Below are positions 7,449 through 57,710 of a stretch of 64,000 nucleotides of DNA, piece after piece. Source of the DNA: Somniosus microcephalus. Its lineage: Eukaryota. A model generated the notes under the pieces. The model saw nothing but the letters and a program-made list of their open reading frames with translations. It made no database searches and was not told the DNA's origin. The position numbers and the translations under genes are program-made. Each line of letters starts with the position of its first letter. Positions within the stretch are counted from its first letter, which is position 1. The stretch spans positions 3,472,001-3,536,000 of the forward strand of contig CM126233.1 of the NCBI GenBank assembly GCA_052327205.1, in the 5' to 3' direction.

Positions 7449-7484
7449 CTTTATCTTTCAGATCATCTTTGAGTTTATTCAGTT
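7449..7484 (-). CDS. Putative 36-nt phase-1 micro-exon (ELNKLKDDLKDK) of host gene
   Basis: tctttcttttcaag|AACTG...ATAAAG|gtgaaa; peptide similar to exon 35679-35714. Confidence 0.6.
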
Positions 7485-7949
7485 CTTGAAAAGAAAGATC
7501 ATACGTTTTCATCTTCATTAGATGGTTTTTGACCTGCACATTTCTACAACCCGCTCTTTTTTTCCAGTGTTGCTCTCCACACTACTTGCCACAACATGAA
7601 GAAAATGGAGGGGTGATGTAATGGGCCAATGTGTTTCTTGGGCAGACGTGCTAACAGCGCACCATGGCAGGAGCAGCCCGCCATACTTCCTGTTGGATAT
7701 TCAGTTCAGTTTAAATCAGTAGAAATCCCCTTCACGACATGTTAGATTGGTATCTCACCATTTGTTGTGCGACCAACAAGTAGGGTTGGCCGCTGGTCTT
7801 CTCCGCCATAGAGGGAATATGAAATGGTAGGTTTTAGGCCATTTATAGAGCCTGGCCTTCAGTTGAAGCAAAACCTCAGAAAGCCCAAAACACGGAAGTT
7901 AAGCAATGCAAGGTTATATTTCTGGTTTTAATCCTCTGGTGAGTGAGAA

Positions 7950-9592
7950 TGACTGTGTGCGTGTGTCTGTGTTTATGTCTGTGTGTGGGTGTGTGAGAGA
8001 GAGCATGAACGTGTGAAAGACTATGGGCTAGATTTTTGTGGAGCTGTCAGGCGGGGTTTCAGGTGTGTGGGGGGGGAAATTCCGAATTTGGGCGTCCCAA
8101 CACCATCCCGCCCAAAACCCCACCCCACATAAGTTTCAGGGGCGGCGGGTACCCGCCCTGCACTGGGACCCACTGAAACCAGGCGGGAAGGGATTAGTGC
8201 CAATTAACTGCCTGTTAACAGGTAGTTAACAGGCAGTTTTTAGCCTAATCCCTATTTTGAGGGGTTTCGTGTGGGTTTCCCGACAACTCCAAACCACGCC
8301 AAGTTAGAGCAGGCGGGCCGTCGGGTTGAAGGAGTTGGAGGGGCCACGATGTCGGTGCTCAGGTGAGTGATAGGTGCATGAGTGTAAAGGTAAGTGTGTT
8401 TGGTGTGTCTAAACTGTGTAAAGAACTTTTACTTACCTGTACTTACCTTCACAGCCTTTCTTCCTGTAGCCGTCGGGAGCGCATCACTCAGCCGGAACTG
8501 AAAGCTGAATGGCTGCGATCTGTCAAAAGTGACAGCCTTCAGCTTTGAGTGCCGGTGAGAGTTCTAACTGAGTCTGTGCAGAAGGACTCATGTTAGAACT
8601 CAGAGTGTCAGTGCTTCACAGCTTCAAACAGCTGTGAAACGCTGATATTTCATCTGTCAAAAACTCTTGACAGATGAAATTGCAGTCTGTGACGTCACCT
8701 GTTGCCGGGTGGCCCTTAATTGGCCTGCTGAGCCTGCTGGGTGGGGTCAACAAGGTCAATCAAGGGAAAATCGCGCGGATTGGCCGGACGTCGAAGTAGG
8801 CGGGTCAAAAACCCGAAAGGGGAAGTCCTGCCTTCTTCCCGACAGGTTCGGCAAAATCTACCCCTATGTGTATGAGAGCGGTTGTGTGTGTTTAAGTGGG
8901 TGAGAGAAAGAGTGTGTGTAAGAGTGTGGCTGTGTGTTTGTGTGGTAGTGAGAGAGAAAGTGTATGTGAGAGACTGTGTGCGTTAGAGAGGAACTACGTG
9001 TGAGTGGGTGAGAGAAAGTGTGTGTGAATGAGTGTATGTGTGAGAGACTGTATGTGAGAGATGCAGTGGGTGAGAGAAAGAGTGTGTGGTAGACTGTGTC
9101 TGTGTGTGTGAGAGAGTGAGAGAGATACTGTGTATGAGAGACTTTGTGCATGAAAGAGGAAGTATGTGTGAGTGGGTGAGAGAAAGTGTGTGTGTGAGAG
9201 TGTGTTTGTGCGAGAGAGTGTGAGAGACAAAGTGTGCGTGAGTGGTTGAGAGAAAGAGTGTGTGAGAGAAAGTTTATGCATGAGAGACTGTGTGTGAGAG
9301 AGGCAGTGTGTGTGAGTGGGTGAGAGAAAGAGAGTGTGAGAGAAAGTTTATGCATGAGAGACTGTGTGTGTGAGAGGCAGTGTTTGTGACTGGGTGAGAG
9401 AAATAATGTGTGAGGGAGAGTGTATGTGTGAGAGACTGTGTGTATGAGAGGTAGTGAGTGTGGCTGTGTGAGAGAAAGAGTATGTGAGAGAGTGTGTATG
9501 CATGAGAGATGCAGTGCGTGTGAGAGGGGCTGTGTGTGTGAGCAGGTGAGAGAAAGATTGTGTATGTGTGTGTGAGAGAGCGAGAGATAGAT
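7950..9592. repeat. Degenerate GT/GA-rich low-complexity tandem repeat, interrupted by a MITE
   Basis: Recurrent gtgggtgagagaaagagtgtgt-like units. Confidence 0.85.
8025..8864. mobile_element. Non-autonomous PIF/Harbinger element
   Basis: TIRs GGGCTAGATTTT / AAAATCTACCCC with 3-bp TSD TAT (8022-8024, 8865-8867). Confidence 0.8.
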
Positions 9593-9824
9593 TGTACCTC
9601 TATCAACTATTTGCGTGCAGATATTTGGCCTTTTACAAAGTTGGAAATTGATTCCATTTAGAAGCCCAGATCGCCTCACGTATTGGTGCAATTTTCATCA
9701 GTTCTGAGCTCAGTGAACGCTGACAATAGTGGTTCAGCATTATTGATTTTTCCATCTGAAGTTAGAAAGCCACTAAACAAATATGTTCAGCAGCTTACAA
9801 ATTCGTAATCTTTTCCAAATCAAC

Positions 9825-11172
9825 GGCCCGGATTTTGCCGTCAGCAGCAAAACAAAGGCATTCGGCGTATGCCCTGAGGTAGGCTGCCCTCAGAAATCTC
9901 GTGATTTCTTTGGCGAGAAGTTTACTTTTTCCAAAACGTAGTTGATTTCGGTGCATTGTATTGGAGATTCCCTAGGGCGATCTGCTGTGAAGTCAACAAG
10001 CTGCCTAAGCAGCCAATCAGATTGCAGAATTCTCGCAGGCAGGGAACCAGGAAATGAGAGGTATATTTTAGCCCGAATTGTTAAAAATGACACAGAGAGC
10101 AACACAAAGCTTGGGACTCTCACATGGGTATCAGGTAGAACCTGAAATATCATGAATAATCTTACTAAACAAAGCTAAATATTTTGTAAAAGTTATAATT
10201 ATAATCATACTGGAGATATTTAAACTCCACAAATTTAAAATTAGTTTTCGGGGCTACAATGTTTGTGTAGTAGTCAATAAGCTTTTAAAAGCCCAGTTTT
10301 TTAAAATTCGTTCATGGGATGTGGGCATCGATGGGAAGGCCAGCATTTATTGCCCATCCCTCGTTGGCCTTGAGAAGGTGGTGGTGAGCCACCTTGTTGA
10401 ACCGCTGCAGTCCGTGTTGTGCAGGTACTACCACAGTGCTGGTAGGGAGGGAGTTCCAGGATTTTGACCCAGCGACGATGAAGGACCGTGATAAACTTCC
10501 AAGTCAGGCTGGTGTGTGACTTGTAGGTCAACTTGGAGGTGATGGTGTTCCCATTCACCTGCTGCCCTTGTCCTTCTAATGGTAGAGGTCGCGGGTTTGG
10601 GAGGTGCTGCCGAAGAAACATTGGCGAGTTGCTGCAGTGCACATTGTAGATGGTATACATTGCAGCCACGGTATGCCGGTGGTGGAGGGAATGAATGTTT
10701 AAGCTGGTGAATGGTGTGCCAATCAAGTGGACTTCTTTGTCCTGGCTGGTGTCGACACCATTGAGTGTTGTTGGAGCTGCACTCATCCAGGGAAGTGGAG
10801 CGTATTCCATCTCAGTCCAGATATGTGCCTTGTAAATGGCGGAAAGGCTTTGGGCAGTCAGGAGGTGCTGTGAAAACCCCAGTTACGCCTAACCCAATAA
10901 GGCTTCATGTTTGATGGTGTGTTAACAGCCATATTACGGTGGAGAAGCCCACGTTTTCGTCAGTGTCACTGATTTCACTGATTGCCCGTTATTGTGGGGG
11001 TGCGGGGGAGGTGGGCGTGCAGCACAGCCAGTATCGGAGCAGTGAATAACTGCAAATTCAGGTGTTCTGTATTTAATTGCGCATGCGCTACATCCTGCCA
11101 TTTCCAAAAAATTCAAAGGTGTACCAACGGCGATCGCTGGTAGTTCGTCATTATTACCCAGCACAAATCCGC
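9825..11172 (+). mobile_element. Harbinger-like MITE (GGCCCGGATTTTGC terminus), interrupted by a LINE fragment
   Basis: Left end similar to 63563-63773; right end CACAAATCCGCCC similar to 17580-17645. Confidence 0.55.
10300..10868 (-). mobile_element. CR1-group LINE 3' fragment (a different family from the full-length CR1)
   Basis: MEYAPLPWMSAAPTTL..LIGTP..LNIHSLHHR RT C-terminal peptide followed by a 3' UTR. Confidence 0.75.
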
Positions 11173-17943: not shown

Positions 17944-17970
17944 CTGCTTTTGCTTCTTGCACACGTTGAT
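17944..17970 (-). CDS. Putative 27-nt phase-1 micro-exon (DQRVQEAKA)
   Basis: cttcttattctttcag|ATCAAC...AAGCAG|gttaaa (strong acceptor, weaker donor). Confidence 0.55.
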
Positions 17971-21399: not shown

Positions 21400-24300
21400 T
21401 GTAGTGTATGTACCTTTAAGAGAGAACTACTTTTACAGCTCCTGTATACGGTAGTACTGGCAGTGACCACACCTGTATATAAGCCTTGAGCATGCCTCTG
21501 TACCCCAGTCTTGAAACTACCCTACTCCAGTAAATACCTGTTGATTGTTAAGTTACAGCATCCGTGTGGTTATTGAAAAACATCATACTCTCAGAATCAC
21601 GGATCTAACAGTGGCGACGAGTGTCGATTCGAATCTACCTGCAACTCTGCATTTCCCTTCGAGGATTCGCTCCGGGAGGGCGGTGGAAGAAAGTCGAGGC
21701 CAGAAACACAGGCGTCGACCACGAGCAACCGCCCAGTCATCCAGCAGAGATTGAACATCGCTGGGGAGGCTGTGGAGAGCCGGGCTTGGTTCCCCAGCCA
21801 TGACGATCAGCAATAGACTGACGATAGGGACAGCGCAGACCCTTCCCAGACAGCGGCGGCTGGAGCTGACCGATGGCAGAGAGAAAGTCGAGCAGCGTCG
21901 ACGGGGTAAGACAGAGAGACAGAGGGTGAAGCGCACAGGGCGCAGCCGGGGGTTGAAAACCGAGCGGCGTCGAGGAAAAACAAAATGTAGAGAGAGAGGG
22001 TAAAGCAACAGCCGGGTTCAGGACCATGCGGCGGAAACGGGAAAGGCGCACAAAAAAAAAAAAGAACACGCAGAGCACAGCCAGGGCTCAAGGGCTGAAC
22101 AGTGTCCGCGGGGAGAAGAAGGGAGAGCGCGGGAGACGCCATTCAGCCGCGGAGAAGAAGGGGAAGCGCGGGAGATGCCATTTTTGACCGTTAAATCACA
22201 CCCAGGGATGCAGAAGAGTGGCAGTATCTCTACATTCGACAATGAAGTCGAAGATTGGGTGACATATGTCGAACGTATTGAGGTGTACTGCAGGGCGAAT
22301 GAAGTGCCAGATGCTAGGAAAGCACTGGCTTTGTTAAATTCCATGGGTGCAAAAACTTATGGGTTACTGCAAAACCTAATAACCCCAGAGAAGCCTGTGA
22401 ACAAGAATTTCGAAAGCATAGTAGAAATCCTACAGGACCACTTAAACCCCACACCGCTGCTGATAGCAGAATGATTTAAGCTCCATAAAAGGAACCAACA
22501 CAAAGACAAAAGTGTTTCTTCTATGAAAGCAATGCTGAGTACCTAACGGAACTGCACAAGCTATCGAAACACTGCCAGTTTGGAGCGCGACTAGCAGATA
22601 CGTTAAGGGACAAGTTTGTGTGTGGGCTGCAAAGTGAAGGAACCCAGAAACGGCTTCTATCAGAAAAGGATCTTACGCTGGACAAGGCTTTCAGTATGGC
22701 AGTATCACACGAAGCAGCCGCAAGGGGCGCTGCAGAGATACAACGGAGACCGCAAGAATATGGCACCAATGAAATGTCCTATGGAACAGGGAAGTGCTAT
22801 CGCTGCGGCAGAACAACACATGACCAGAAGGATTGTTGGTTCAAGGACCAAGTGTGCAGACAGTGTGGAAAAGCAGGACACATAGCAAGAGTCTGCAGGT
22901 CTGGGAAGAAAACCAACAGTAAGAAATCTCCACAGGAGAAGTACAAAAAGATACACCAGGTGATGGACAGTAGTTCAGAAGAACAGAAAAGTGACACAGA
23001 CTCCGGAAGCAAGGAGCTGGGTTGTCTGAAACTACATAAGGTAACCAAAATGGAGGATCACCAGACTATCTGGGTTACACTCAAGATAGACGGAATCCAA
23101 GTGAAAATGGAATTGGACACAGGATCAGCCCTAACAGTCATAAACCAAAGGGACTACAAGCGGCTATATTCACATATACCCTTGAAAGCTACAGAGATTG
23201 TCTTGAAGATGTACACGAGGCAAAAAGTCTACCCCAAAGGAAAAATAAGGGTGAAAGTGATATATAAAGGCCAGGAAATACCTAAAATGGATATATATGT
23301 ATTGCCAGATGGAGGACAACCACTGCTAGGACGTGAATGGATCCGGAAGATACAATTAGATTGGCATTCCATACAGGCACTGAAGGTTGAGGCCAAAAAG
23401 GATGATGACGTCACACCTGGACGACTGTCAAAAATGCTAACTGACGAAAAAGAAGTGTTCCAGGAGGGACTCTGAACACTAAAAGGCATAACAGCAATGA
23501 TTAAAATAGAGGAAAATGCAAGCCCAAAGTTTCTTAAGGCCAGACCAGTGCCTTATGCGACCAGACCAGCTGTCGAAGCAGAGCTGGAAGGGTTGGAACG
23601 CTCAGGAGTACTGTCCAAAGTAGACTGGAGCGAGTGGGCTACACCCATCGTTCCTGTAATGAAGAGGTCGTTGAGTAATACACCTGGGGAACCAAAGAAG
23701 GTCCGCATCTGTGGGTATTTTAAGGTGACAGTGAACCCAGTCCTTCACACGGTACAATATCCGCTTCCACGAATTGAGGATATATTCGCCTCGCTATCTG
23801 GAGGTAAACGCTTCACCAAAATTGATCTAGCCCAGGCGTACTTGCAAATGGAGGTAGATGAAGCCTCGAAACAATACCTTACGATTAACACTCATAAAGG
23901 TCTTTATCAATACAACCGGCTGGTGTTCGGGGTAGCATCGGCTCCGGCTATTTGGCAAAGGGCGATGGATCAGGTCCTGCAAGGGATTCCAGGGACCCAG
24001 TGTTATTTGGACGACATCCTGGTCACGGGCGAAAATGACAGTGATCACCTCGCCAACTTGGAGAAGGTGCTCACCAGATTAAAGGAATATGGGCTACGAG
24101 CTAATCGCCACAAGTGCGAGTTTTTCCAGAAGCAGATCTCGTATTGTGGCCACGTCATCGATGAAGAGGGGTTACATAAGTCCCCTGAAAAGATTGAGGC
24201 AGTAGTCAAGGCTCCAGCACCGGAAAATGTGTCACAACTGAGGTCGTTCCTCGGGCTGGTAAACTACTAGCATAAGTTCTTACCAAATTTGTCCACGGTA

Positions 24301-26463
24301 TTACACCCACTGAACACCCTACTGCAAACAGGGATACCATGGAAGTGGAATGACAAACGTAGACGAGCTTTCCAGAAGTGTAAAGAATTGATCACATCAA
24401 AAGAGGTGTTGGCCCATTTCAACCCAGCACTACCAATTCGTTTGGCATGTGATGCATCACCCTATGGTATTGGAGCGGTGCTGTCGCACAAATTCCCAGA
24501 TGGGTTGGAGAGGCCAGTAGCCTTTGCGTCTCGGTCACTAACCTCAGCCGAGCGCAACTATGCCCAGATTGACAGGGAGGCCCTCAGCCTTGTATGGGAA
24601 GTAAAAAAATTCAACCACTATCTTGCTTGGGCAGAAGTTCACCTTGCTGACTGACCACCAACCACTTGTCTCCATCTTTAATCCTAAGAAGGGCATTCCA
24701 GTAATGACGGCACAATGGTTACAAAGATGGTCCCTGTTTCTAGTGGCGAATCAATATGAAATAGAATATAACGGCACGAAACAGCATGGAAATGCTGATG
24801 GGCTATCGCGCCTGCCACTGCCTACTGTGGAGGAAGCACCAGCAGTGGACCCTATCGAGATATTTTATTCGTCGATAATTGAACGATTGCCAGTAACGAA
24901 CGCGGATATAGAGAAGGAGACCCGCAATGATCCGACGCTATCTCGGGTATATGATTTGACGGTGAGGGGATGGCCAACACATGGCGACTCACTGTTGCCA
25001 GCATTCTCATCCAGAAGAGAACAGCTGTCAGTATGCCAGGGGACAGTGATGTGTGGATCCAGAGTGGTGATTCCACCCAAGTTAAGGGAGAGAGTGCTAA
25101 ATGAGCGACATGAAGGTCATCTGGGGGGAGTGAAAATGAAAAGCCTTGCTAGAGCTTATGTGTGGTGGCCGGGAATTGATCAACAAATCGAAGACCTAAC
25201 CAAGAGCTGCTCAGGATGCCAGAAGGTCCAAAATGCACCACCACATGCCCCTCTACACCCATGGGAGTGGCCCTCCTCTCCATGGCAATGGGTGCATATT
25301 GATTTTGCTGGTCCATTCATGGACTCAATGTTCTTAATAGCAATGGATGCTCATTCGAAGTGGCCTGAGGTGATAAAAATGTCCTCAACCACTACAGAGA
25401 AAACGATTGCAGTCCTACGGACCATATTTGCCAGAAACGGCTTGCCAGAGCAGATTTGCTCTGATAATGGAGCACAGTTTGTGTCTGAAGAGTTTTGAAA
25501 ATTTATGAGAAGGAATGGGGTAAGGCATTACACATCCGCCCCGTATCATCCAGCCACAAATGGATTGGCTGAGAGGTTCGTACAAACCTTTAAGAAGGCG
25601 ATAAAGGCCATGTGCGACGATGAAATTCCACTACAGCATAAGGTGGACAATTTCTTATTAGCCTACCGAAACACGACACGACCAACCAGACCCCGGCCAT
25701 GATGTTCTTTAACCGAAGGTTGCGATCTCGTCTGGACTTGCTTAGACCAAATGTGCGAAGAAATGTTGAGGATAAACAATTCCAGCACATCAATGAGAAG
25801 CCAACAAGGCGCTTCAATGTAGGACAACCAGTCTTGGCCCGTGACTACCGAACAGAGAAATGGCAACCCGGAACGATATGCACACGGCAGGGGCCATTAA
25901 TGTACACAGTGCATGTCGGGGAGAACATTGTGAGACGCCACGTTGATCAGGTCTTAGCGTCACAGGAACGAGTCAACCCCATGTCTTGCGTACCTGGGGA
26001 TGAACCCGACATACCGGTAGCATCTACCTCCGAACCAGTAGCAGTGGAACCCGATGAACTAACCGATGAAAAGGGGCCAGAATCGCCTCCGCACCAAGAA
26101 CAAGAACCTTAGGAAAGGCGCTATCCCGAAAGGATCAGGAAGCATCCCCAAAGACTGAATCTATAAATGGGCTATTGTTGTTTAATGTACATGTTAAAGT
26201 GTTAATTGTTATTTGAATATTATGGGTACTACTAATCTAAAAGGGGAGGAATTGTAGTGTATGTACCTTTAAGGGAGAACTACTTTTACAGCTCCTGTAT
26301 ACTGTAGTACCGGCAGTGACCACACCGGTATATAAGCCTTGAGCATGCCTCTGTACCCCAGTCTTGAGACTACCCTACTCCAGTAAATACCTGTTGATTG
26401 TTAAGTTACAGCATCCGTGTGGTTATTGAAAAACATCATACTCTCCGAATCATGGATCTAACA
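21400..26463 (+). mobile_element. Ty3/Gypsy LTR retrotransposon, copy 1, decayed
   Basis: LTRs 21400-21610 and 26253-26463; PBS TGGCGACGAG; PPT AAAAGGGGAGGAA; TSD GTAAA/GTAAC. Confidence 0.95.
22208..26166 (+). pseudogene. gag-pol of Gypsy copy 1 with multiple stops and frameshifts
   Basis: Two CCHC knuckles, LDTGS protease, YLDD RT, LACDAS RNase H, HHCC/DDE integrase spread over several broken ORFs. Confidence 0.9.
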
Positions 26464-26799: not shown

Positions 26800-27672
26800 T
26801 AACAACAGAAAATGCTGGAAATACTCAGCAGGCCAGGCAGCATCCGTGGAGAGAGAAACAGAGTTAACGATTCAGGACTGGGACCCTTCATCAGAACTGG
26901 GGAAAGCTGGAGATGTAACAGATATTAAGCGGGTGCAGAGACAGCGGGGGGGGGGGGGGGGGGAGGAAGGAATTGAAAGAACATCCTTTACTTTTAGGAA
27001 AGATAAAATGTCACAAATGGGAATGCCAAAATCATACAGCATGAAAAACCCAAACACCCCTTCCAGGTGAAACAGCGATTTACTTGTACTTCTTGCAATT
27101 TAGTATACTGTATTCGCTGCTCACGATGCGGTCTCCTCTACATTGGGGAGACCAAACGCAGATTGGGTGACCGCTTTGCGGAACACCTCCGTTCAGTCCG
27201 TAAGGGGGACCCCGAGCTTCCGCTCGCCTGTCACTTTAATTCTCTGCTTCACTCCCACTCTGATCTCTCTGTCCTCGGGCTATTGCATTGTTCCAATGAA
27301 GCTCAACGGAAGCTCGAGGAACAGCACCTCATCTTTCGATTGGGCACTTTACAGCCTGCCGGACTCAACATCGAGTTCAACAATTTCAGATAATTATCCC
27401 TGCCCCCATTTTTCATGCTGTATGATTTTGCCATTCCCATTTGCAACATTTTATCTTTCTCCTTCCTCCCCTCCTAAACCCCTCCCCCCCACCCACGTCT
27501 CTGCACCTGCTTAATATCTGTTACATCACCAGCCTTTTCCAGTTCTGATGAAGGGTCCCAGACCTGAAACGTTAACTCTGTTTCTCTCTCCACGGATGCT
27601 GCCTGGCCTGCTGAGTATTTCCAGCATTTTCTGTTGTTATTTCAGATTTCCAGCATCCGCAGTATTTTGCTA
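26800..27672 (+). mobile_element. Penelope-like element (Neptune-type) fragment: GIY-YIG endonuclease end and pseudo-LTR, with an inverted pLTR copy at the 5' end
   Basis: ORF 27067-27393 FTCTSCNLVYCIRC..YIGETKRRL..RFAEH..GLN; about 140-bp inverted repeats at 26800-26943 and 27498-27639. Confidence 0.9.
27541..27577 (+). ncRNA. Minimal type I hammerhead ribozyme in the Penelope pLTR
   Basis: AGTT-CTGATGA-agggtcccagacct-GAAA-CG-TT-AACT: conserved core, stem II hairpin, palindromic stem III (ACGT), stem I AGTT/AACT. Confidence 0.7.
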
Positions 27673-27814
27673 TTGTATGTAAGAGAGAGTTATAGGTTAA
27701 AACGTAACTTAGATTTGACTAACACCTGGATATGTAAAACTGAACCGGCACTGGATAGAGATGTATACTGTCAGCTCTGTTGTCTCCCAGCTCAAATGCT
27801 TACACGCTACTCAC

Positions 27815-27841
27815 CATCACTCTTCCCGCAGTCTTCCAATT
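27815..27841 (-). CDS. Putative 27-nt phase-1 micro-exon (ELEDCGKSD) with GG in place of AG at the acceptor; an in-frame 18-nt alternative exists
   Basis: ctattgttcattttccatgg|AATTGG...GTGATG|gtgagt. Confidence 0.4.
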
Positions 27842-28026: not shown

Positions 28027-28053
28027 CTAGCTGGCATTGGCGAAGCTTTTCCT
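28027..28053 (-). CDS. Putative 27-nt phase-1 micro-exon (EEKLRQCQL)
   Basis: ttcttcatttttatag|AGGAAA...AGCTAG|gtaatc. Confidence 0.6.
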   Translation of the reverse strand, partial: RKSFANAS

Positions 28054-35678: not shown

Positions 35679-35714
35679 CTGCATCTCTCAGAGCATCTTT
35701 CAAGTTGCGTATTT
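35679..35714 (-). CDS. Putative 36-nt phase-1 micro-exon (EIRNLKDALRDA)
   Basis: ctttttgcttttcag|AAATAC...ATGCAG|gtgaga. Confidence 0.65.
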
Positions 35715-36516: not shown

Positions 36517-36543
36517 CGTTATCCTTCTCCACTTGCGATTTTG
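36517..36543 (-). CDS. Putative 27-nt phase-1 micro-exon (AKSQVEKDN)
   Basis: tatttacctcgttatag|CAAAAT...ATAACG|gtaact. Confidence 0.55.
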
Positions 36544-36990: not shown

Positions 36991-37079
36991 TGGGACCAGA
37001 AATTCGGCCCTGGCGGTGGCGCAAAACCGACGGTATCGGATCAGTCGACCGTTATACGCAGCGCTTGATATTCAGTTCC

Positions 37080-37870: not shown

Positions 37871-37872
37871 TA

Positions 37873-38239
37873 CAGGTAGTGCACCGGTAATCCGGCACCC
37901 GATGGTCCGGCACCTTCAGTGGTCCGGCACGAGGAAGGTCCTGCTGTCACATTCCCTCCCTGGGATGGATCTGGCTCGGGTCCTGGGACCGCCGCCGGGT
38001 CAGGATCAGCGCCTGGGCCGCGCAGCATCACCGACGGCTCGGCGGAGCAATGGAGCCCAAGCCCGAGCAGCCCGTGGGCGGCGGGGTTGGCGGCGGCACA
38101 GGGAGGGCAGCAGCAGGAAGAGGAGGAGCAGGTGGTGGCGGTGTTTGAGATGACTTTCGACACCTTCAGTGGTTCGGAACTTTCAGTGGTCCGGCACCGG
38201 CCTGGTCCCGAGGGTGCCGGATTACCGGAGTTGCACCTG
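37873..38239. mobile_element. Tc1/mariner-pogo (Tigger-like) MITE
   Basis: TIRs CAGGT..CCGGTAATCCGGCACC / GGTGCCGGATTACCGG..ACCTG flanked by TA; subterminal GTGGTCCGGCAC repeats. Confidence 0.85.
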
Positions 38240-38289
38240 TACTGAGGTAGTGGAATCACTTTCCATTCATGAAAATTGCCGAGACACAC

Positions 38290-39250
38290 GTTTTACAGCG
38301 CGCGTGCAGTCAATGGCATTCTGCACCTTGGGGAAGCATGCAATCCGTGCAATCCCTCATGCTCGCACCCGTTGCATGACTCCGACAAGAGGGAATGAGA
38401 TGAATCGTTCTATCTTTGCATAGAGAGCCTCAGTGATCTCCCTTATGCAGCAAACTGCAGGATGTTGCTTATATATCCAGTAGTCACCTGGAAGGAGGCA
38501 GATGGCTCAAAGTTAAGAGCAATGGTCTCCTTGATCGCCACAAGCAATGCAGTCCTTGCCCTGCTTTGAGGTTGCAGTTGTGGTTGCCGCAGTTAGCAGA
38601 TTTCAGTCACAAATTCTATAATGAAGCGAAAACGTCTCATGCATTGGCCCTTGCTGAAGTTGAGGTTAAAGAATGGCTCGCTTAAAGACCCAGGGCGGAT
38701 ATGGCCGCCTTCTGAGAGGCCTTCACCCCCACCTCCTCCGCCATCTTCTAGGACCTTGCCCTGCTCTGCGTGGCCGCTGCTCATTCTCCCAGTCATGCTC
38801 AATGCCAGGAGGAAGCCCTACTAGGTCACCCATGTCCAGAAGCAATTGTTTGGTGCACGTGCCTTAAAGTCACTTAAAGGTAATCCAGCAAAAGCTAGAC
38901 TGTAGACTATTGAAAGTGCGTAGAATTGCAAAAAGCCAGAAGCGGTAATCCAGCAACTAACATGCAGGTAGATGTTGCTCCCTTTAAGAAGTGCTGGTGG
39001 GCAGTCATTCAAGCCATTTAACGTCATGTTCAGCTGTGCAAGTTTAAGAGATGGCGTAAGGTGCAGCGTGCAGCTCCAAAATCGCAGGGCTGGCATCAAA
39101 TCAGCGTTCCACGCTGAACAACGTCATGATCTGTCTGCTCTGCATGCTGCCGGTGGCTGGACAGTGCCCGCGAGTCCCGGACGCCATTTTCCTAGATCAA
39201 GAGGCCGCGTAGCACCCAGAAAACGTGCGCTACAGAGCGCAATTTAGCCC
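38290..39250 (-). pseudogene. Harbinger transposon left end with a decayed HARBI1-like DDE transposase N-terminus
   Basis: Terminus GGGCTAAATT at 39250; minus-strand translation RRPYPP..QCMRRFRF..VTEIC..ALNF..SFQ..ITEAL..ISFP..FPKVQNAIDCT. Confidence 0.8.
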
Positions 39251-39279
39251 TCCAAGCTTTTTTTCCTTTTATATATATT

Positions 39280-40022
39280 GCCCCAGAAATTCGGGTCTCC
39301 ACGGGTGAGTACGCATGGGGTACTCACCTGTATGCCCAATGGAAGTGCTGGTTTCCTGCATGCACTTCTGTCCCCCTAAAAGAATGGGTTGACAGGTCGA
39401 ACTCGTGCACAGGAGAGGCAGCGCGTGCAATTCGAACTTACGTTTTTTTCGCAGGCTTTTCCCGGGAGGGTAAGTTAACAGAAGTTAGACATGTAAAAAG
39501 CAGTCGCAAGGCCTGCTTTTTACAAGATAAGTGGTGAATTAATTAAAATTAAAACTTTTTTCCCACAGGTTTATTATTTTTAAATAGTTTAAAGAAAGGT
39601 AAGTTTATTTTTAGCCCCGTTAGAAAATGTAATTAATTTTTTTTTTAAATTTAAATTATTGTTTAAAATAGTTATTTCATGCAATTTATAGTTTATTTTA
39701 CAAATGTGATGTTTTTTAAAAATTTATTTGAAGTTTTAGTGATGTTTTGGGGCTTAAAGTATTTATAGGTTTGACAGCTCTTCCTGTCAAAATTATGAAT
39801 GAAGCATTCCCTGCTACCATTGGCTCTCCATGGCCCACGTGATCCCAGGGGACGCTTCGAACTAACTGCGCCTCTGGGATACGCAAACACTGCGCGCCGG
39901 CAGTTGGAGGAGGCCCAGGATCGGAATCCCACGCGGGCCCACAGCTCAACGGCTGGCACGCTGGGTAAGTGCAGGTCGGGGGCTTGCGCCTGCGGGAAGC
40001 CCCCAACCCAAATTTCTGGGCC
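39280..40022 (+). mobile_element. Harbinger-type MITE
   Basis: TIRs GCCCCAGAAATT / AATTTCTGGGCC; flanks ATT/AGT; homologous to 49598-50335 and 55235-55998. Confidence 0.85.
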
Positions 40023-40071
40023 AGTGGGTATAAACACAGCAAGAAATCTGCAAAAAATCTCTTTTCCTTAC

Positions 40072-40098
40072 CCAGTTGTTCGAAGAGTAGATCAGCTT
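40072..40098 (-). CDS. Putative 27-nt phase-1 micro-exon (EADLLFEQL); 30 nt if the upstream AG of the TAGCAG acceptor is used
   Basis: cattccttttatttagcag|AAGCTG...AACTGG|gtaagg. Confidence 0.65.
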
Positions 40099-40419
40099 CT
40101 GCTAAATAAAAGGAATGAAAAAACACGCTGAAGCCTCCATGCGATGGAATTGCCAAGCATTTTACCTGTTGTAAGCGGAACAGATCAATATCAGCCTGCT
40201 GTGCCAATCATTGTGAGTCCCGTTTGAAGAAAAATGCATTTTGCTTTATATTTAGGTAATAGTGGCCCGGTAAAATAGTTATATAGGAACAAGAATAGGT
40301 TATTCAATCGCTCAAGCTTGTTCTGCCATTTAATTAGAGAACAGTGTATCTCCATCTTACCTCCATTTTTCCGGCTTAATTCTATAAGTATTAATAATGT
40401 TGCCTGAAAAAAACTCTAC

Positions 40420-41186
40420 CAATAGATTGGGAGAAGGGGAAGTGCAACGTGACCGGGGTGTCCTTGTGCACCAGTCGCTGAAGGTAAGCATGCAGGTGCA
40501 GCAGGCGGTTAAGAAGGCAAATGGTATGTTGGCCTTCATAGCGAGAGGATTCGAGTACAGGAACAAGGATGTCTTGCTGCAGTTGTACAGGGCCTTGGTG
40601 AGACCACATCTTGAGTATTGTGTGCAGTTTTGGTCGCCTTATCTGAGGACAGATGTTCTTGCCATGGAGGGAGTGCAGCGAAGATTCACCAGGCTGATAC
40701 CTGGGATGGCAGGAATGAGGTATGAGAAGAGATTGGGTCGATTGGGCTTATACTCGCTGGAGTTTAGAAGAATGAGAGGGGATCTCATTGAAATGTATAA
40801 AATTCTGACAGTACTGGACAGACTAGATGCAGGAAGGATGTTCCCGATGGCCGGGGAGTGCAGAACCAGGGGTCACAGTCTAAGGATAAGGGGTAAGCCA
40901 TTTAGGACAGAAATGAGGAGGGATTTCTTCACCCAGAGATTAGTGAACCTGTGGAATTCTCTACCACAGAAGGCAGTGGAGGCCAATTCATTAAATATAT
41001 TCAAGAAGGAGTTAGATATATTTCTTAAGGCTAAAGGGATCAAGGGATATGGGGAGAAGGCAGGAACAGGGTACTGAGTTTGGATGATCAGCCATGATCG
41101 CATTGAATGGCGGCGCAGGCTTGAGGGGCCAAATGGCCTGCTCCTGCTCCTATCTTCTATGTTTCTACATTTCTATGTTTCTATGT
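40420..41186 (+). mobile_element. Young 5'-truncated CR1 inserted in an older antisense CR1 (about 40285-41612)
   Basis: Open RT C-terminus ending KGYGEKAGTGY; (TTTCTATG)n tail. Confidence 0.92.
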
Positions 41187-41727
41187 TAATCACAGTTTTG
41201 ACATTTTAAATTGACCTAGCGTCAACAGATATTCAATGGAGAAAGTTCCAGATTTCCATTAGCTTTGTGTGAAGAAGTGCTTCATGGCATCAATCCTGAA
41301 CGGCCTATTTCTAAGATTATATCCATGCCCCCTGATCTGGATATTCCACACCAGATGAAATATATACTCTCTATTTATACTATTAATTCTCTCTAAGCAT
41401 CTTAAACAGCTCAATTTGATCACACTTAACTTTTATACAATGAAATACAAGACTAGTCTAAGCAAGCTGTCCTTACAATGTAACCCATGTAGACAATGTT
41501 TGAATCTGCCCGGCATCCACTCCAAAGCCAATGTGCCCTGCCTGAGATGTGGGGCCGAGAACTGAATGCAATACTCCAGATGGCTCAAGCGAGAGCTTTC
41601 GATAATGGAAGAATGGGCCATACGTTGCAACCCCTGGGGGTGCGTAGGAGGTGCGCATGCGCCCGTATGTGCCGAAAACATTCCAGGGTTAGGCATGCGA
41701 AGCGCGTGCGCTAAAACCCGGAAATGT

Positions 41728-43940
41728 GTGAGTACGGTCGGGTTACTCACGCATCTGGCCGTTGGAAATGCCGGTGTTCAGCAGGAACAGCGCATGCGGG
41801 GAACGCCAGCATTTCCAGACCCGAGGTCTATTCACAGCGCGTGCGACTGCACAGGCAGCGCTTGCGCAGTGAACTTTGTAGATTTCACTGATGGATTCAG
41901 TGAGGGTAAGTCTCTAGAACTTGCACTTAAAAAAAAGCAAGTGTAAAGTTGTTCATTGGCTGGGGAAGGAGATATATTTTATGGAGGAGCTTATGAAATG
42001 CAATATTTAGGTTTGGGAAAGGGAGGGAAGTTATTTTAAGAAATTTTAACTAAGTTTTAAACTTTAATTTTTTTTTTTTAAACGGGTTTTCAGAACGGTA
42101 GGTAGAAGGAGCAATTGTGGCTGTGTGAATGGAATGTGAGAATGAGTTATGTATGTATGTCCACATATATTCCTTTACGTATATGTATGTATGTTTTATA
42201 TTCCTTTACTAATGTGTATGAATGTATATTTTTAATTATGATTTTCCAATAAGTTACTTTCTCTGAAAGTCATAATTAAATAATACATTCATACACATAA
42301 GTAAAGGAATATATACATAACACGCAAAGGAATATATACAGACATACATACTTTCAGAAGCTCCACGATAAGAAATATCTTCCTCCGCAGCCTCTGGAGC
42401 AACTGTACCCATGCTTTTTTCATGTGTAAGTTGTAATGACTGGACCTCACTGAAAGCATTAATGAAAGCGGCGAATTATACTGCGCACGCGCTGCATGTG
42501 CAGTCGCACGCGTTCTGCCTCTGAACCCCTTCGTTCAGAGGACAGGAAATGCCGGTTTTCCCCACATGCACTGTGCATGCTGAAAACCGGCATTTCATCC
42601 GGCCAGATGCGTAAGTACCCCGACCGTACTAGCGCATTTGGAAGGGAATTACTGGGCCAACATTTTACATGTCAATAAAATAAAAAATTTAACAATTGCA
42701 CAACTTGCCCCCTCGCATCTGCGACTGAGGGTCCAAGGAGGTGCATTGCGCAAGAGGTCATCATCGTACGTATCCTCACACTGTTCCCTTTGGGGAACTG
42801 TATGAAGTGGTGGAAGGATTTATGGCCGTGATTAACGCTCATTCCGTGACCGTAACCATCTTTGAACCAGCTATTAGGGTGGTTAATCCTATGGCGGGCG
42901 GGTTTTACGGGCTCCCACAACCCATCTGAGGGGGGGGGTGCCACCAACACCCACGGACGCAAGCATCCCGCTGGATGTCCACCCAGAATTTAAGGTTGGA
43001 GCTCCGACTCCACTTGCCGGGACTGTCTGGAGTGGGGTTCAAAACCCTACTCCTTCTGGCCCAGCGGCGGGGATGCTTACTGCTACGCAAAAGGCCCACT
43101 CCGCACAAAAGGTGACACCCATACGTTTCCTGCGCCTTTTCCCTCCCCGTGACTGGAGCCCTATGCTGCCATTTCACGTTGCTAATTGGATTGGGCCTTT
43201 GTCATAGCGGTAGGATCCCCGCCGCTGGGCCAGATCAGGGTAGGGTTTCGAACCCCGCTCCAGACAGTCCCGGCAAGTGGAGTCGGAGCTCCGGCTCTAA
43301 ATTCTGGGTTGACATCCAGTGTAGCTTGTGGGAGCCCGTAAAACCCTCCCGCCATAGGACTAACCGCCCTAATGGCTGGTTCAAAGATGGTTACGGTCAC
43401 GGAATGAGCGTTAATCATGGCCATAAATCCTTCCACCACTTCATACAGTTCCCCAAAGGGAACAGTGTGAAGACACGTATGATGACGACATTGCTAAATA
43501 AATAAATGGAATTTAAAAAAATTCTTTTAGGGCTTTTAAAAGTCTTTAAATTGCTTTAATTCTCTTTAAAACTACTTCAGATTACTCAAAATAATGTAAA
43601 CATTTAAAAAAGTTTATAAAAGTTACCAAAATCTTCAAAAAACTTCCAAAAACCCATTTAAACTGCTGCTTTGCATGTAAAAATCCTTAGCAGCTTGACA
43701 GAAACATTGGGGGCATGTCCACTGAAACTGAGACCTCAAGGGGCGTGTCTAACTTACACTGCACGCTCCTGGCTTCGCGCTGGCTGCACTCCTGGGCGGC
43801 GTGACGTCATACGCTGCCCGGGAATGTGCTTTCTATTTCTGCAAGTTCAGGCGTCCCAGAAGCTGATCGGCACGAGCGCGGGGTAAATGCAAATACGGGG
43901 CTTGCACGCGCTGCAAGCCCCGTTCTGGAATTTCTGGGCC
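41728..43940 (+). mobile_element. Composite Harbinger-type unit, copy 1 (long-TIR MITE, foldback, right end of a second MITE)
   Basis: Collinear with 50339-52366; internal end ACTGGGCC at 42658; final end GAATTTCTGGGCC|AAT. Confidence 0.8.
42756..43490. repeat. Foldback (long inverted repeat) with 300-345-bp arms and a loop of about 85 bp
   Basis: 42756-43101 is the reverse complement of 43188-43490, apart from a deletion in the right arm at 43320. Confidence 0.9.
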
Positions 43941-45399
43941 AATGCATCCCCAGGAAAGGGCCTCAGCGGGCGGAGGGTTACGCTATTTGCCCAACTTCTG
44001 CCCGGCGACTGCCCGTACATTTCTTACGCCTGGTAAAAGCAGGCATAAACTCTGCCTTTACCTGCGTAAGAGTTTTAAAAAACATTGTTTGCATTCTTTT
44101 AAACATTAAAACACATGTACAATAAGGTAAGTTTATGTTTAGACCACTTAAATTAAATACATTTATTTTTCAATTGTATTTTAATTAATTTTAAATATGT
44201 AACATTTTTTAACATTTGTTATGTTAAATCTACTTTTATTTCATCCCTATTCATGCTTATGTAGGTTCCGTACAAACCAAATCTCCAGAAGTATTAATGG
44301 GAAATTCTTTGATTGTTTAGGCAAACCCACGTGATCCCAGGGGCGCTTGCGAACCACCTGCGCCGCTGGGGTACGTGTGCATCTACGCAGTCCTGCCAAT
44401 GTCTGAACGTTCAGTACCATCGGGTAAGTCCGTTGAATTTTTGCTGGTCGGGTGCATCCGTCCGCAGGGAGCCTCCAGTAACTTCCACCACTTTGTCCTT
44501 GGTAAGCAGTCCCAGAGCAATGTCGTCCCCGCTGGGAACAGGATGATGAAAGGCTACGTTGAGCAGGTCCCCTAGTAACCAACTGGAAATCTAGTATTTA
44601 AAATAAAACCGGCGGGGGACGTTACTATTTCTTTAATTTGCATTCTGTCCTTGAACTGCTCCCAGTTAAATTTGGTTATGGAAATGTTAGCGGAGGTTAA
44701 CTGAATTTCTTGGGCATTAACAGGAAACTGGAAATTTTAGTGGAATGTCCATTTGCTTCCAGCCAAAGTGATCTTGTCTCTGAAGTTTTTACATCACCAC
44801 CAAAAACAAGATAATCTGGATATGGAGATCGGGAACTCTCTCTCGCAACAAGCTGTGGAGATTAGGGGGTCAATTGAAAATTGAAAAACTGGGAGTAATA
44901 GATTATTAAGCTATTTGTTAGGGTAGATAGAGATAAACTGTTTCCTCTGGTGTGGGAGCTCAGAAGCTAGCGGCATAACCTTGAAATTAGAGCTCGGCTG
45001 TTATGGGGTGATTTAGGGAAGCACTGCCTCACACAAAGCGTAGAGGAAATATAAATTCCTCTCCCCAGTAAGCAGTTCAACCTTGGCCAACTGTAGGGTT
45101 CAAACTAGAGATTGATAGAGTTTTGACAGGCAGAAGTATGAAAGGTTACAGAACCAAGGTGGGCAGACGGAGCTCTGATACACATCAGCCACAACCTAAC
45201 TGAAAGGCGGAACAGCATCGAGCGGCTGCAATTACTTAGTCCTTGCTCTTCCTATGTTAGCAGATCAGCCTGAAGGCAATGTCTGAATATACTGACTCTC
45301 AGTGATGTCAGAACACTGGCGCGGAACTCTCGCGATATCCCGTCGCTAATGGTTGTACTTTGCATCCCTCCCACATGAGGAAGCATCTCAGCATTGTAC

Positions 45400-45426
45400 C
45401 TGCATTCGGGTAATTATGTGTTTTTC
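45400..45426 (-). CDS. Putative 27-nt phase-1 micro-exon (GKTHNYPNA)
   Basis: gctgttttctcttgcag|GAAAAA...ATGCAG|gtacaa. Confidence 0.6.
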
Positions 45427-46892
45427 CTGCAAGAGAAAACAGCAATCATTACATGTTGTACAACCTCAGGTTTGAAGTTGAATTATTTTCTTTCCGGCAG
45501 TGGAACCTGAGCAAAATTTTGGAAGAACAACGCCAGGCAATGCTCGCATGATCACGTGTTTGTCCGGCCTGTAGTGATGGATGAATACTAATTTTCGTAC
45601 TATTACTATTGAGTAGACTGACGCCATTGTCTTGTGTCTCATCTGTTCCATGAGATAGCGAAATAAGTTTCTCTTGACTTCCCTATTCGATTGATTGCTG
45701 ATTATCTTCACTTGATGGACCCCAGTTTTGATTTTCGCACGAGATGAAAGTTTTTCGCCATATTTGAAGTTTCGAGCACCCCTCATAATTTTAAAGACTT
45801 CTATTAGGTCAACCTTCGGCCTTCACTTTCCTAAATAAAAAATACCCCTGGGTGATCAACCTTGTCTGATCGTTCTACACTCTCAGATCTTGTGTCATCT
45901 CTCTTTGTCATGTTTGCCCCCTCTCCCGTGGAAAACATCATGACATTAAAGAAAACAATGAATGGGGAATGAGGAGCAATTGGCAACATAGATTTGGAGT
46001 ACAGTCACAGACAGGAAGTGTTCGCTACGGAGAAAGTGCAAATATCAGGAGGGAATATACCAGTGGAGGCAACGTATGGCTTAATGCTCAGGTAAGTTAC
46101 ATCAAAAAGATGCGTTAGATTCAGTACCTTATGGGAATGGCGATTTCGCGGATGTTACGGCCACTAAGACCGTAATATTAACTGTGGCCCATGTTGTATT
46201 TCGGGACATATGAAATTAGCGACGCATTGAAAAACATGCCGGATGCTCCTTTGCATTCAAGTCAACGGAAGGCAAACCAGGCTGGGTGTATATTGTTCGG
46301 CGAATTCGATGGTGGCTACTTTGCACCATATCTGAAGGATAAACAAGCCCGCAAGGTGCCGGATTAAACTGTGTGCACTTTATTGGCCACTCGTTTACAC
46401 AAGTAATCATTTTATTTCCCATTGACCCGGTAAATCAGCTCGCGTAGAGCATTAATTAACAAGATGGAGCAGTTATCTTAGAATCCTAGATTGGTACAGC
46501 GCAGAATTAGGCCATTCGCCCCTTTGTGCCTGTACTGGTACTTTAACAAATCCGATCCAATCAGTCCCACTGCACCACACTTTCCCGATACATCTGGAAT
46601 AATCGCCTCCAACTCAAGTTTTTATCCAATTCCCATGGAGTTATTAATGAATCTGCTTCCACCACGCATTATGAAAGTGCGTTTCTCATCATAACAACGC
46701 GCTCCATCACAGAAATTCTACTCAGTTCGCCTGTGGTTCTTGTGCCAATTAACATTTGTGTCCTCTGCTTACCGACCCCTCTGCCATGAGAAACTTCTTC
46801 TCCCTGGTTACTCTGTGAATACCCTTCATGGTTTTGAGCACCTCTTTTTAATCTCCCCTTAACATGCTGTGTGCTAAGGACCACCATCCCAG

Positions 46893-47628
46893 TCCAACGC
46901 CACCTTCAGTGTGCCAGTGCAGCCTCCGGTCGCCTGAGGAAGAGAGTGTTTGAAGATCAGGACCTCAAACCCGGCACTAAGCTCATGGCCTACAGAGCAG
47001 CAGTGATACCGGCCCTGCTGTATGCCTCAGAGACATGGACCATGTACAGCAGGCACCTCAAAGCACTGGAGAGGTACCACCAACGCTGCCTCTGCAAGAT
47101 CCTGCAAATCCATTGACAGGATAGCTGCGCCAACGTCAGTGTTCCTGCTCAGGCCAACATCCCCAGCATCGAAGCTTTGACCACGCTCAATCAGCTCCGA
47201 TGGATGGGTCACATTGTCCGCATGCCCGATACAAGACTCCCAATACAAGCGCTCTACTTGGAGCTCCGACACAGCAAGAGAGCCCCAGGTGGGCAGAGGA
47301 AATGCTTCAAGGACACCCTCAAATCCTCCTTGAAAAAGTGCAACATCCCCATCGACACCTGGGAATCCCTGGCCCAAGACCACGCAAAGTGGAGGAGAAG
47401 CATCCGGGAAGGCGCCAAACACCTTGAGTCTCTTCGCCGGGAGCAAGCGGAAGCCAAGCACAGGCAGTGCAAGGAGCACACGTCAACTCAAGCACCCCAC
47501 CCACCCACCCCTTCAACCACCTGTGACAGAGACTGTAGGTCCCGCATTGGACTCATCAGTCACCTGCAACCTCATTCTTAATGTGGAAACAAGTCATCCT
47601 CGGTTCCGAGGGACTGCCTAAGAAAAAG
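46893..47628 (+). mobile_element. RTE-clade LINE, 5'-truncated, inside an old antisense CR1
   Basis: TKLMAYRAAVIPALLYASETW, QLRWMGHIVRMPDTRLP; 10-bp TSD ACCATCCCAG (46883-46892, 47629-47638). Confidence 0.9.
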
Positions 47629-47991: not shown

Positions 47992-48018
47992 CTGACTTAC
48001 CAGGAGTCGACGCTTCGC
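47992..48018 (-). CDS. Putative 27-nt phase-1 micro-exon (GEASTPGKS); an alternative internal donor gives 18 nt
   Basis: tatatttccag|GCGAAG...CCTG(gtaagt)CAG|gtaaag; resembles exon 54899-54925. Confidence 0.55.
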
Positions 48019-54898: not shown

Positions 54899-54925
54899 CT
54901 GATTTCCCAACATTCAGCTTTCCGC
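54899..54925 (-). CDS. Putative 27-nt phase-1 micro-exon (GGKLNVGKS)
   Basis: cgtttatattttcag|GCGGAA...AATCAG|gtaacg. Confidence 0.6.
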
Positions 54926-55998: not shown

Positions 55999-56483
55999 AA
56001 TGTGACGATGAAAATCGGGGATGCGCAAGACGCCAGATATGGAGGGATGCATGCATAGTGGAGGGTTGTAGGACTGGATGGTTTTACACAGGTAGGGAGG
56101 GGCGAGGCCGTGGAGGGATTGAATACAAGGATGATTTTCCTTTAAAATCAAGGCGTTGCCGGGCTGGGTTCCAATATAGGTCAGCGAGCAGCTGGGTGAT
56201 GGTTGTTTGGGATTTGGTGCGAGTTAGAATCCGGGCAGCAGAGCTTTTGATGAACTCAAATGTACAATGGGTGAAAGATGTGAGTCTGGACAGGACGTAA
56301 TGGAGAAGTCGAGTCCGGTTGTATCAAAGACATGGCTGGTGGTGACGGGGATGTAAAGTGCTTTAGACATCATTCTGCTACTTGCGAGATAGAATTGGGG
56401 AAACAAGACATTTTTAGACTTTAGAATAATTGCAATTCAAAAGAGGAAACACTCACTATTCAGTTCCCTCCCCTTGTGCTGAC

Positions 56484-57487
56484 AGGGATCAGCGCTGGGG
56501 CCTCAAATATTTATAACCTATATTAATGACTTGGATGAAGGGACCGAGTGTACTGTAGCCAAATTTGCTGACGATTCAAAGATAGGTGGGTTAGCAAGTT
56601 GCGAGGATGCAAAGCGATGTAGATAGTTTAAGTGAGTGGAAAAACATTTGGCAAAAGGAGTATAATGTGAGAAAATGTGAGGTTATCCACTTTGGAAGGA
56701 AGAATGAAAAAGCCAATTATTATTTAAATGGAGTGAGAGTACAGAATGCTGCGGTACAGAGGGATCTGGGGGTCCGAGTACATGAAACACAAAAAGTTAG
56801 CATCCAGGCACAGCAAGTAATTGGGAAGGCTAATGGAATGTTGGCCATTATTGCAAGGGGTATGGAGTATAAAAGTAGGGAGGTTTTGATGCAACTTTAC
56901 AGGGCGCTGGTGAGACCGCACCTGGAGTACTGCGTACAGTTTGGTCTCCATATTTAAGGAAGGATATACTTGCATTGGAGGCAGTGCAGAGAATATTCAT
57001 CAGGTTGATTCCTGGGATGAGGGGGTTGATGTATGATGAAAGGTTGAGCAGGTTGGGTCTATAATCATAGGAGTTTAGAAGAATGAGAGGTGACCTTATT
57101 GAAAGATATAACATTCTGCGGGGGATGGACAGGGTGGATGCTGAGAGGATGATTCCCATAGTGGGGTCATCGAGAACTAGGGGCATAGTTTCAGAATAAG
57201 GGGCCGCCCATTGAAGACGGAGATGAGAAGGAATTTCTTCTCTGAGTGTCGTGAATCTTTGGAATTATCTACGCCAGAGAGCTGTGGAGGCTGAGTCAGT
57301 GAATATATTCAAGGAGTAGATTGGCAGACATTTGAACTACATGGGACTCAAGTGGTATAGGGAGAGACTGGGAAAGTGCTGTTGTGGCCAAGATTGTATC
57401 AGCCATGATATTATTGAATGGTGGAGCAGGCTCGAGGGGCCGATTGGCCTACTCCTGCTCCTGTTTCTTATGTTCTTATGTTCTTAG
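56484..57487 (+). mobile_element. CR1 3' fragment
   Basis: Runs from QGSALGP through KFADD to LVRPHLEYCVQF; (TTCTTATG)n tail. Confidence 0.9.
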
Positions 57488-57674
57488 AACATCTAACCCT
57501 ACTTTATATTAATACATTCACTTAGCTTTCCTGTATCTTGTGCTGATAATCAGCATGAGACAGTGCGAACAATTGAACAGCTACATGTTTGAGTAAATGC
57601 CAACATTGTAAACAAAATGCAAGGATTTATCACAAGACTTGAACTTATTCTTGACCAATAATTTCTTTCCTCAC

Positions 57675-57710
57675 CTCTATTTTGCAGTTCTTGCATCAGT
57701 TTTTCATTTT
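57675..57710 (-). CDS. Putative 36-nt phase-1 micro-exon (xNEKLMQELQNR)
   Basis: tttttggttttcctttacag|AAAATG...ATAGAG|gtgagg. Confidence 0.65.

Follow-up and report, generated by a model that had tools for sequence, protein, structure and literature searches.

Eleven segments of 27 or 36 nt scattered over 50 kb of a shark chromosome raise the question of whether they are exons of one gene and, if so, what such a gene would encode. They lie in a stretch of 64,000 nucleotides of the Somniosus microcephalus genome (C32:3,472,001-3,536,000), hereafter the window, and were first pointed out in an earlier note made from the sequence.

Micro-exons in the window

All 11 segments were found where the earlier note had placed them: they are on the minus strand, end in G and have GT donors, the acceptor being AG in 10 of the 11 and GG at 27815..27841, and when joined they were open in the phase-1 frame only. 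When a weight matrix had been trained on the exons of the array described below, it recovered all of them except the GG segment, and revealed no further 27- or 36-nt exon on the minus strand of the window. The phase-1 exons thus scored are those of 36 nt at 57675..57710 (matched in paralog B by C32:5,205,450-5,205,592), 35679..35714 and 7449..7484, and those of 27 nt at 54899..54925, 47992..48018, 45400..45426, 40072..40098, 36517..36543, 28027..28053 and 17944..17970. The exon at 47992..48018 has a weak acceptor and a stronger, in-frame internal donor that would yield 18 nt, that at 40072..40098 has a tandem acceptor with a 30-nt alternative, and the donor at 17944..17970 is weak. The GG segment, whose region is matched in paralog B at C32:5,237,733-5,238,047 (the region of 28027..28053 is matched at C32:5,237,0xx), may be a dead exon, or an 18-nt exon formed via an in-frame AG 9 nt inside. 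A candidate 21-nt phase-1 exon absent from the original list is located at 40361..40381 on the same strand. Three further candidates, one of 30 nt at 55657, one of 27 nt at 33838 and one of 24 nt at 31892, were discarded as repeat-derived.

The plus-strand and shuffle counts that the earlier note had proposed as a check came out in favor of the exons: with generic splice scores, 27/36-nt candidates in the window numbered 7 on the minus strand, 0 on the plus strand and 0.55 on average in 20 shuffles (maximum 3), and looser cut-offs gave 9, 0 and 1.6, respectively.

A megabase array on the minus strand

The window sits in the middle of a gene, here named gene A. The ~320 coding nt that the earlier note had assigned to it across 50 kb are real segments but only ~4% of the whole array, in which 247 exons with a matrix score of at least 15 (241 with canonical sites and 6 broken; 7,353 nt, ~2,450 aa) extend on the minus strand from C32:4,041,246 to 2,748,228, i.e., over 1.29 Mb. 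In a scan of 1.26 Mb the minus and plus strands presented 130 and 13 candidates of 27 nt, and 99 and 14 of 36 nt; those of 21 nt were 12 and 10, and no enrichment was found for other lengths divisible by 3 (178 minus, 201 plus). Since candidates were picked on splice sites only, the frame test was not circular: of 276 minus-strand candidates 14 had stops in the phase-1 frame, versus 177 and 130 in the other frames, and of 36 plus-strand candidates 18 had stops. On the strand, shuffle and frame tests, together with the register tests (see below), we reject the idea that the exons arose by chance or from repeats, and the proposed host gene of symmetric phase-1 exons was borne out as a single open frame in a strand-biased array. 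The broken exons would be harmless to the frame of gene A, because every exon shares phase 1.

Paralogs and the B30.2 exon

Gene B is a paralog arranged head-to-head with gene A, with exons in shared order. The micro-exons of both genes were shown to be under purifying selection, as 23 of 30 exons could be paired between them, with a dN/dS of 0.38 (bootstrap 0.26-0.60), versus 0.91 and 1.76 in the other frames. The 3' end of gene B consists of three 27-nt exons followed by a phase-1 PRY-SPRY (B30.2) exon, and another paralog, gene C, ends likewise (Pfam SPRY, 6e-17). The PRY-SPRY exon expected beyond the left edge of the window therefore exists, directly for B and C, and for A by inference across a flipped scaffold piece (see below). 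Copies of the last exon of gene C on C36 and C39 were rejected as retrocopies, since their intron flank and stop mark them as genomic duplicates. In a B30.2 tree the family formed its own long-branch clade, apart from the TRIMs and the single butyrophilin included (82/99); the deep branching order of this tree is tentative, and its C39 row is uninformative (wrong strand).

Two RefSeq models of the electric ray Narcine bancroftii (XP_069797409.1 and XP_069797411.1), named 'zinc-binding protein A33-like' and only 280-289 aa long, were orthologous to gene C by tree (98/97), with 65% identity over B30.2. XP_069797409.1 parsed into 9/12-aa units with a score of 39.1, versus -33 +/- 7.5 for shuffles (0 of 1000 reaching it), and the same profile was not significant on three TRIM controls. 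Isoform X2 differs by the loss of precisely one 9-aa unit, which matches the penultimate exon of gene C; the alternative splicing suggested in the earlier note is seen only indirectly, in this ray homologue. A structure predicted for the ray homologue as a monomer was of low confidence (pLDDT 54), with one helix at 16-74, and a fold search with it returned B30.2 structures only, at low TM. Among proteins of up to 2,000 aa there was no long annotated homologue, the 74 + 4 matches being TRIMs and one butyrophilin. The ESM Atlas holds a 1,579-aa SPRY cluster (score 0.85), which we note as a lead only. Our literature search found no published study of the ray proteins and no published description of a micro-exon B30.2 rod family.

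Coiled-coil register and modules

The hydrophobic period was 3.5-3.54 across most blocks of the array. The register score of the real exon order was 0.137, compared with 0.102 for shuffled order and 0.120 for shuffles that kept the length pattern, and in each case 0 of 300 shuffles reached it. The exons fall into 94 modules, namely 50 of 36+27, 16 of 36+3x27, 14 of 36+2x27, 9 lone 36 and 5 of 36+4x27, whose type shifts along the array. A 36+27 module makes three heptads and a 36+27+27+27 module four heptads plus one hendecad. Because a single exon preserves the reading frame and not the heptad register, the functional unit is probably larger, either the 21 aa of 36+27 or the 39 aa of 36+27+27+27. 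The modular, frame-preserving exons of the earlier note are thus so for each exon as regards frame, but the register needs these larger units; its core proposal, growth via exon duplication of a coiled coil of butyrophilin/BG-like design, was upheld.

Proposed product of gene A

We see an even chance that gene A gives one message for a cytosolic coiled-coil rod with a B30.2 head that holds a partner at a distance. Around 245 phase-1 exons, each 27 or 36 bases long and distributed across 1.3 Mb, would be spliced into one mRNA, and translation would start at the ATG of a 120-nt exon. The product would have ~2,700 residues, would be cytosolic and would oligomerise, forming a predicted coiled-coil rod ~360 nm long with the B30.2 (PRY-SPRY) head at its end. 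This head likely binds the partner that is kept at a distance, which would suit a role as tether or scaffold. Over evolution, duplication and loss of 36+27 and 36+27+27+27 modules would determine the length of the rod, which within the cell could possibly be tuned by skipping modules.

A more tentative extension is that butyrophilin tails without an anchor form a family in cartilaginous fish and act as molecular rulers, with two head-to-head 1.3-Mb genes of ~250 micro-exons each, in which register-preserving 36+27 modules would be duplicated and co-skipped in splicing and the B30.2 sensor would reach up to ~360 nm, possibly along actin. If true, few vertebrate genes would be richer in exons, and ordinary annotation would not see them. 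As almost every exon has 27 or 36 nt, a megabase-scale gene family such as this one would be overlooked by read aligners and gene finders. The array also provides a test bed for protein geometry, besides reading frame, as a constraint on exon duplication, given that exon order keeps the heptad register, and it may have a bearing on how butyrophilin and BG tails arose.

The 5' end and the search for an anchor

The 5' end of gene A was placed by conservation alone, a procedure that could overlook an anchor exon if it is short or has diverged. A 120-nt phase-1 exon with an ATG is conserved (C32:4,048,991-4,049,110, minus strand), and a conserved ATG-free block (C32:4,081,243-4,081,869, minus strand) is a candidate first exon. 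As A and B are head-to-head, the whole intervening sequence was read. It showed no Ig pattern or TM-like exon (TM scan on the minus strand only), and Pfam Ig, RING and B-box were absent from the 110 of 446 non-repeat ORFs that are ~80 aa or longer. For RING/B-box, tblastn with two shark TRIMs over 1.46 Mb gave B30.2 and transposon matches only; of 47 butyrophilin IgV matches, none lay within the initial 22 Mb of C32. The Ig/TM exons predicted beyond the right edge of the window were not recognisable between the two genes. As neither Ig nor RING exons turned up upstream, and no signal or transmembrane exon is conserved in A and B, gene A would not qualify as a butyrophilin, BG or TRIM gene.

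These negative results argue against a membrane-anchored butyrophilin/BG-type receptor whose Ig/TM exons were missed and whose giant cytoplasmic tail is the array, an alternative that we consider unlikely. It draws support from the 120-nt exon, which is open upstream of its ATG, from the best PDB sequence match of the ray homologue, BTN3A1 (E 4e-25, including the EWKK stretch ahead of B30.2), and from two family members on C35, the contig that has the butyrophilin IgV and TRIM clusters but none of genes A, B and C. Moreover, BTN and BG tails are built from small heptad exons (PMC4046983).

Somewhat less probable is a tropomyosin-like filament binder, in which the 39-residue module would track actin subunits and B30.2 would cap or recruit. 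The tropomyosin repeat is ~39-40 residues, and the rod has sixteen modules of 39 aa, most of them towards its N-terminal half, with a period of 3.54. There is also the precedent of a soluble chicken BG tail (zipper protein), reported to displace tropomyosin (PMC5938342). However, half of the rod is built on the 21-aa module, much of this part appears to be missing from paralog B, and 39 = 4x7+11 follows from coiled-coil geometry alone.

The 3' end and the integrity of gene A

The array of gene A stops 5 kb short of a gap at C32:2,742,536, and its last three small exons (one of which was searched for) are absent from the assembly. The putative terminal B30.2 exon, 89% to that of B, is at C32:1,904,783-1,905,295, 17.5 kb to the right of a gap at C32:1,886,730 whose left 77 kb are without array exons, and intron homology with B picks up again beside it. 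The contig ends overlap over 1,571 nt, at 92%, when one of them is inverted, and an 87-copy 20-mer satellite adjoins the gap. This dovetail occurs exactly at both contig ends, which points to a scaffolding error; most likely this exon is gene A's own, lying across a flipped scaffold piece, and the assembly has a scaffolding inversion that cuts it off.

Were the inversion a true one that removed the 3' end, gene A would be broken or decaying and only B functional, which we regard as improbable. The truncated array with its missing terminal exons, and the 6 broken exons together with the GG segment, would fit such decay. So would the RNA data: no reads or contigs fell on the B30.2 exon of A in 4 of 4 runs, with zero depth over its coding part (two of the runs being same-species RNA-seq, tissue not stated, read in part). 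Across 27700-47600 of the window the RNA reads were mostly transposon, with no exon-exon joint among the best-supported joints listed, and for 27600-28300 no RNA data set was among the matches. Decay is opposed by the dovetail and satellite, and by the B30.2 frame of A, which is open with a dN/dS of 0.34 relative to B.

Just as improbable is that the array is a series of tandem genes or gives rise to many short transcripts instead of one giant message. Its varying module type and the ray model of merely 289 aa would agree with this, but no internal B30.2 exon was found in 1.46 Mb, no internal signal or TM exon was convincing, and a genome-wide search gave one B30.2 exon per array. Least probable of all is a secreted or lumenal fibre, disulfide cross-linked through ~66 regularly spaced cysteines (2.7%, at fixed module positions) that would suit an oxidising compartment, since no signal-peptide or TM exon is conserved in both A and B, one signal-like frame (C32:4,098,668-4,098,735) lies among retroelement ORFs without counterpart in B, and butyrophilin B30.2 is intracellular (PMC12841164).

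Comparison with known systems

Shark TRIM-B30.2 proteins ('zinc-binding protein A33-like') share with gene A a coiled coil and a C-terminal PRY-SPRY, with 33-40% identity over B30.2 in most matches, whereas gene A is without RING or B-box and the TRIM coils misfit the 9/12-aa unit profile. The butyrophilins BTN3A1 and BTN2A1 resemble the family in the succession of small coiled-coil exons, a short EWKK exon and a B30.2 exon, but they have few small exons, in contrast to the ~245 of gene A, for which no Ig or TM exon was found. Chicken BG and zipper protein, as described in PMC4046983 and PMC5938342, are like gene A in having dozens of small phase-1 exons, tandem duplication, a coiled coil, variable length and a tail cysteine. 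The exons of BG are of 21 nt, one heptad each, its tails have ~29-38 repeats, and a single IgV and TM without B30.2 are described for it in PMC4046983; gene A, in contrast, has ~245 exons of 27 or 36 nt, arranged in pairs or fours and ending in B30.2.

Micro-exon array of gene A

The earlier note had listed 11 minus-strand segments of 27 or 36 nt in the window as micro-exons of a hidden gene, and on re-reading all 11 match its description. It had also proposed a count on the plus strand and in shuffled sequence: with generic splice scores, 27/36-nt candidates in the window numbered seven on the minus strand, none on the plus strand and 0.55 per shuffle, in agreement with the claim. About 1.9 Mb of the 6.45-Gb genome was examined around the window. 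A weight matrix, trained on stop-free seeds chosen by their splice sites, revealed 247 exons (151 of 27 nt and 96 of 36 nt) of a gene named here gene A, on the minus strand of the window's contig from C32:4,041,246 to 2,748,228; the window itself is C32:3,472,001-3,536,000. They total 7,353 nt with a median intron of 2.8 kb, 241 of them have canonical splice sites, and nine of the 11 window exons score above the cut-off that yields the set. Because the matrix seeds were stop-free, the frame test was redone without the stop filter: of the 276 unfiltered candidates, 14 contained a stop when read in phase 1, compared with 177 and 130 when read in the two remaining frames, and the plus strand gave 36 candidates. 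The best protein matches for neighbouring exons came from sharks and rays, which points to a cartilaginous fish.

Three window exons presented in-frame alternatives: an internal donor in 47992-48018 (18 nt), a tandem acceptor at 40072-40101 (30 nt) and, behind GG, an AG inside 27815-27841 (18 nt). The long ORFs tested between window exons corresponded to LTR-retrotransposon gag/pol frames and a 988-aa LINE endonuclease-RT frame, located in introns at window positions 474-4318 (-), 22004-26112 (+), 30352-34646 (+) and 60367-63333 (-); about 43% of the window sequence recurs within the fetched region. At C32:2,845,000-2,912,000, a block of about six exons is present in three copies with identical exon sequences, either a recent tandem duplication or an assembly artefact.

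Paralogs and selection

A paralog, gene B, lies head-to-head with gene A on the plus strand, from about C32:4,154,261 to 5,490,824. The sequence covered for gene B comprised 80 kb at its start, 70 kb at its end and two anchors in between. Of 30 gene B exons, 23 found a gene A partner with a match of at least 62% across exon plus flanks; the seven excluded include three terminal ones with no gene A copy. The paired exons gave a dN/dS of 0.38 (0.26-0.60), compared with 0.91 and 1.76 when the two remaining frames were read; some of the pairs, falling in a triplicated block, are perhaps not strictly orthologous. Gene A is very probably a real protein-coding gene under selection.

An older paralog with the same exon types, gene C, extends at least from C32:2,623,717 to a B30.2 (PRY-SPRY) exon at 2,715,088. 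Dispersed 1-kb genomic copies of its last exon and intron flank, 88-90% identical and each carrying a TGA, were located at C36:38.03 Mb and C39:35.19 Mb. A further member, a B30.2 exon preceded by 27-nt exons, was found at C35:130.68-130.70 Mb, and a second divergent B30.2 exon of the same clade at C35:128.63 Mb. Both are on a TRIM/butyrophilin contig, and their 5' ends could include Ig or TM exons.

Ends of the gene

A phase-1 exon carrying an in-frame ATG is common to genes A (120 nt) and B (108 nt). Farther upstream lies a 633-nt block, 85% identical between them, that lacks an ATG in the part leading up to a candidate donor. The start site of gene A is a candidate placed by inference. The Ig/TM exons expected in the earlier note beyond the right window edge did not appear between A and B, nor did RING or B-box exons. 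A Pfam search of 110 of the 446 non-repeat ORFs (those of about 80 aa or more) returned retroelement domains only, and butyrophilin IgV matches concentrate on C35.

Gene B terminates in three 27-nt exons followed by a phase-1 PRY-SPRY exon. The gene A array ends 5 kb short of a gap at C32:2,742,536. A plus-strand B30.2 exon at C32:1,904,783, 89% identical to that of gene B (dN/dS 0.34), has a second gap 17.5 kb to its left. Array exons are absent from the 77 kb left of this second gap; to its right, at an 87-copy satellite, intron homology to gene B restarts. An inverted dovetail of 1,571 nt (92%) links the middle contig, at its right end, to the end of the left contig and reaches both contig ends. 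Judging from these sequences, the scaffold piece C32:1,887,230-2,742,535 was probably flipped in assembly, and across it we infer that the exon at 1,904,783 would be the last exon of gene A, the PRY-SPRY exon that had been predicted beyond the left window edge. A second copy of the penultimate gene B exon was not found in the assembly, as expected if that of gene A falls in the gap. At C32:2,729,103-2,730,050 (+) there is a single-exon rhodopsin-family receptor frame (Pfam 7tm_1), split by one in-frame stop and resembling shark 'GPR139-like' genes.

Relatives and expression

The Narcine bancroftii RefSeq models X1 and X2 (XP_069797409.1 and XP_069797411.1) differ by EWKKIINFK, which corresponds to the gene C exon EWKKIIGWR. 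On gene A profiles the N-terminal part of this electric-ray homologue was parsed into alternating 9- and 12-residue units (0 of 1000 shuffles), whereas three TRIM coils gave no such parse. Two Logan proteins were 80% and 60% identical to the gene B B30.2. In a tree of 35 rows, one of them read on the wrong strand, the family B30.2 sequences form a single long-branch clade (82/99), with the deep branches open. An ESM Atlas match was to a 137-member cluster (representative of 1,579 aa, SPRY in 100% of members, score 0.85), automatically named 'leucine-rich repeat-containing protein DDB_G0290503', which may hold long annotated relatives.

None of the RNA runs searched showed gene A expression; since the tissues of the same-species runs were unstated and 24-31% of each was read, this is weak evidence either way. 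Copies related to the LTR/LINE frames of the window introns were plentiful in the runs. The literature searched, supplements aside, yielded no description of the family, PMC11788884 gave nothing bearing on it, and gene tables of shark genome papers could list these models.

Predicted protein and comparison with known families

The predicted gene A protein is 58% E, K, L and D, with a net charge of -121 and 2.7% Cys, and has a hydrophobic period of 3.5-3.54 across most 400-residue blocks. Units of 9 or 12 residues are not heptads by themselves, but a coiled coil can accommodate 12+9 = 21 and 12+9+9+9 = 39 = 4x7+11, which are also the two most frequent of the 94 modules (50 of 21 residues and 16 of 39). 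The actual exon order kept the coil register above every shuffle, 300 of each of two kinds. Coiled coils rise about 0.15 nm per residue, so 2,450 residues predict a rod of about 360 nm. There is about an even chance that the protein serves as a long tether or scaffold, built as a coiled-coil rod in the cytosol that carries a B30.2 head.

By the features tested, gene A is outside the butyrophilin and BG families. Its array is real and, compared with papers on chicken BG tails and zipper protein (PMC4046983, PMC5938342) and on butyrophilin B30.2 (PMC12841164), is a variation on the 'small-exon coil plus B30.2' design of butyrophilin/BG genes.
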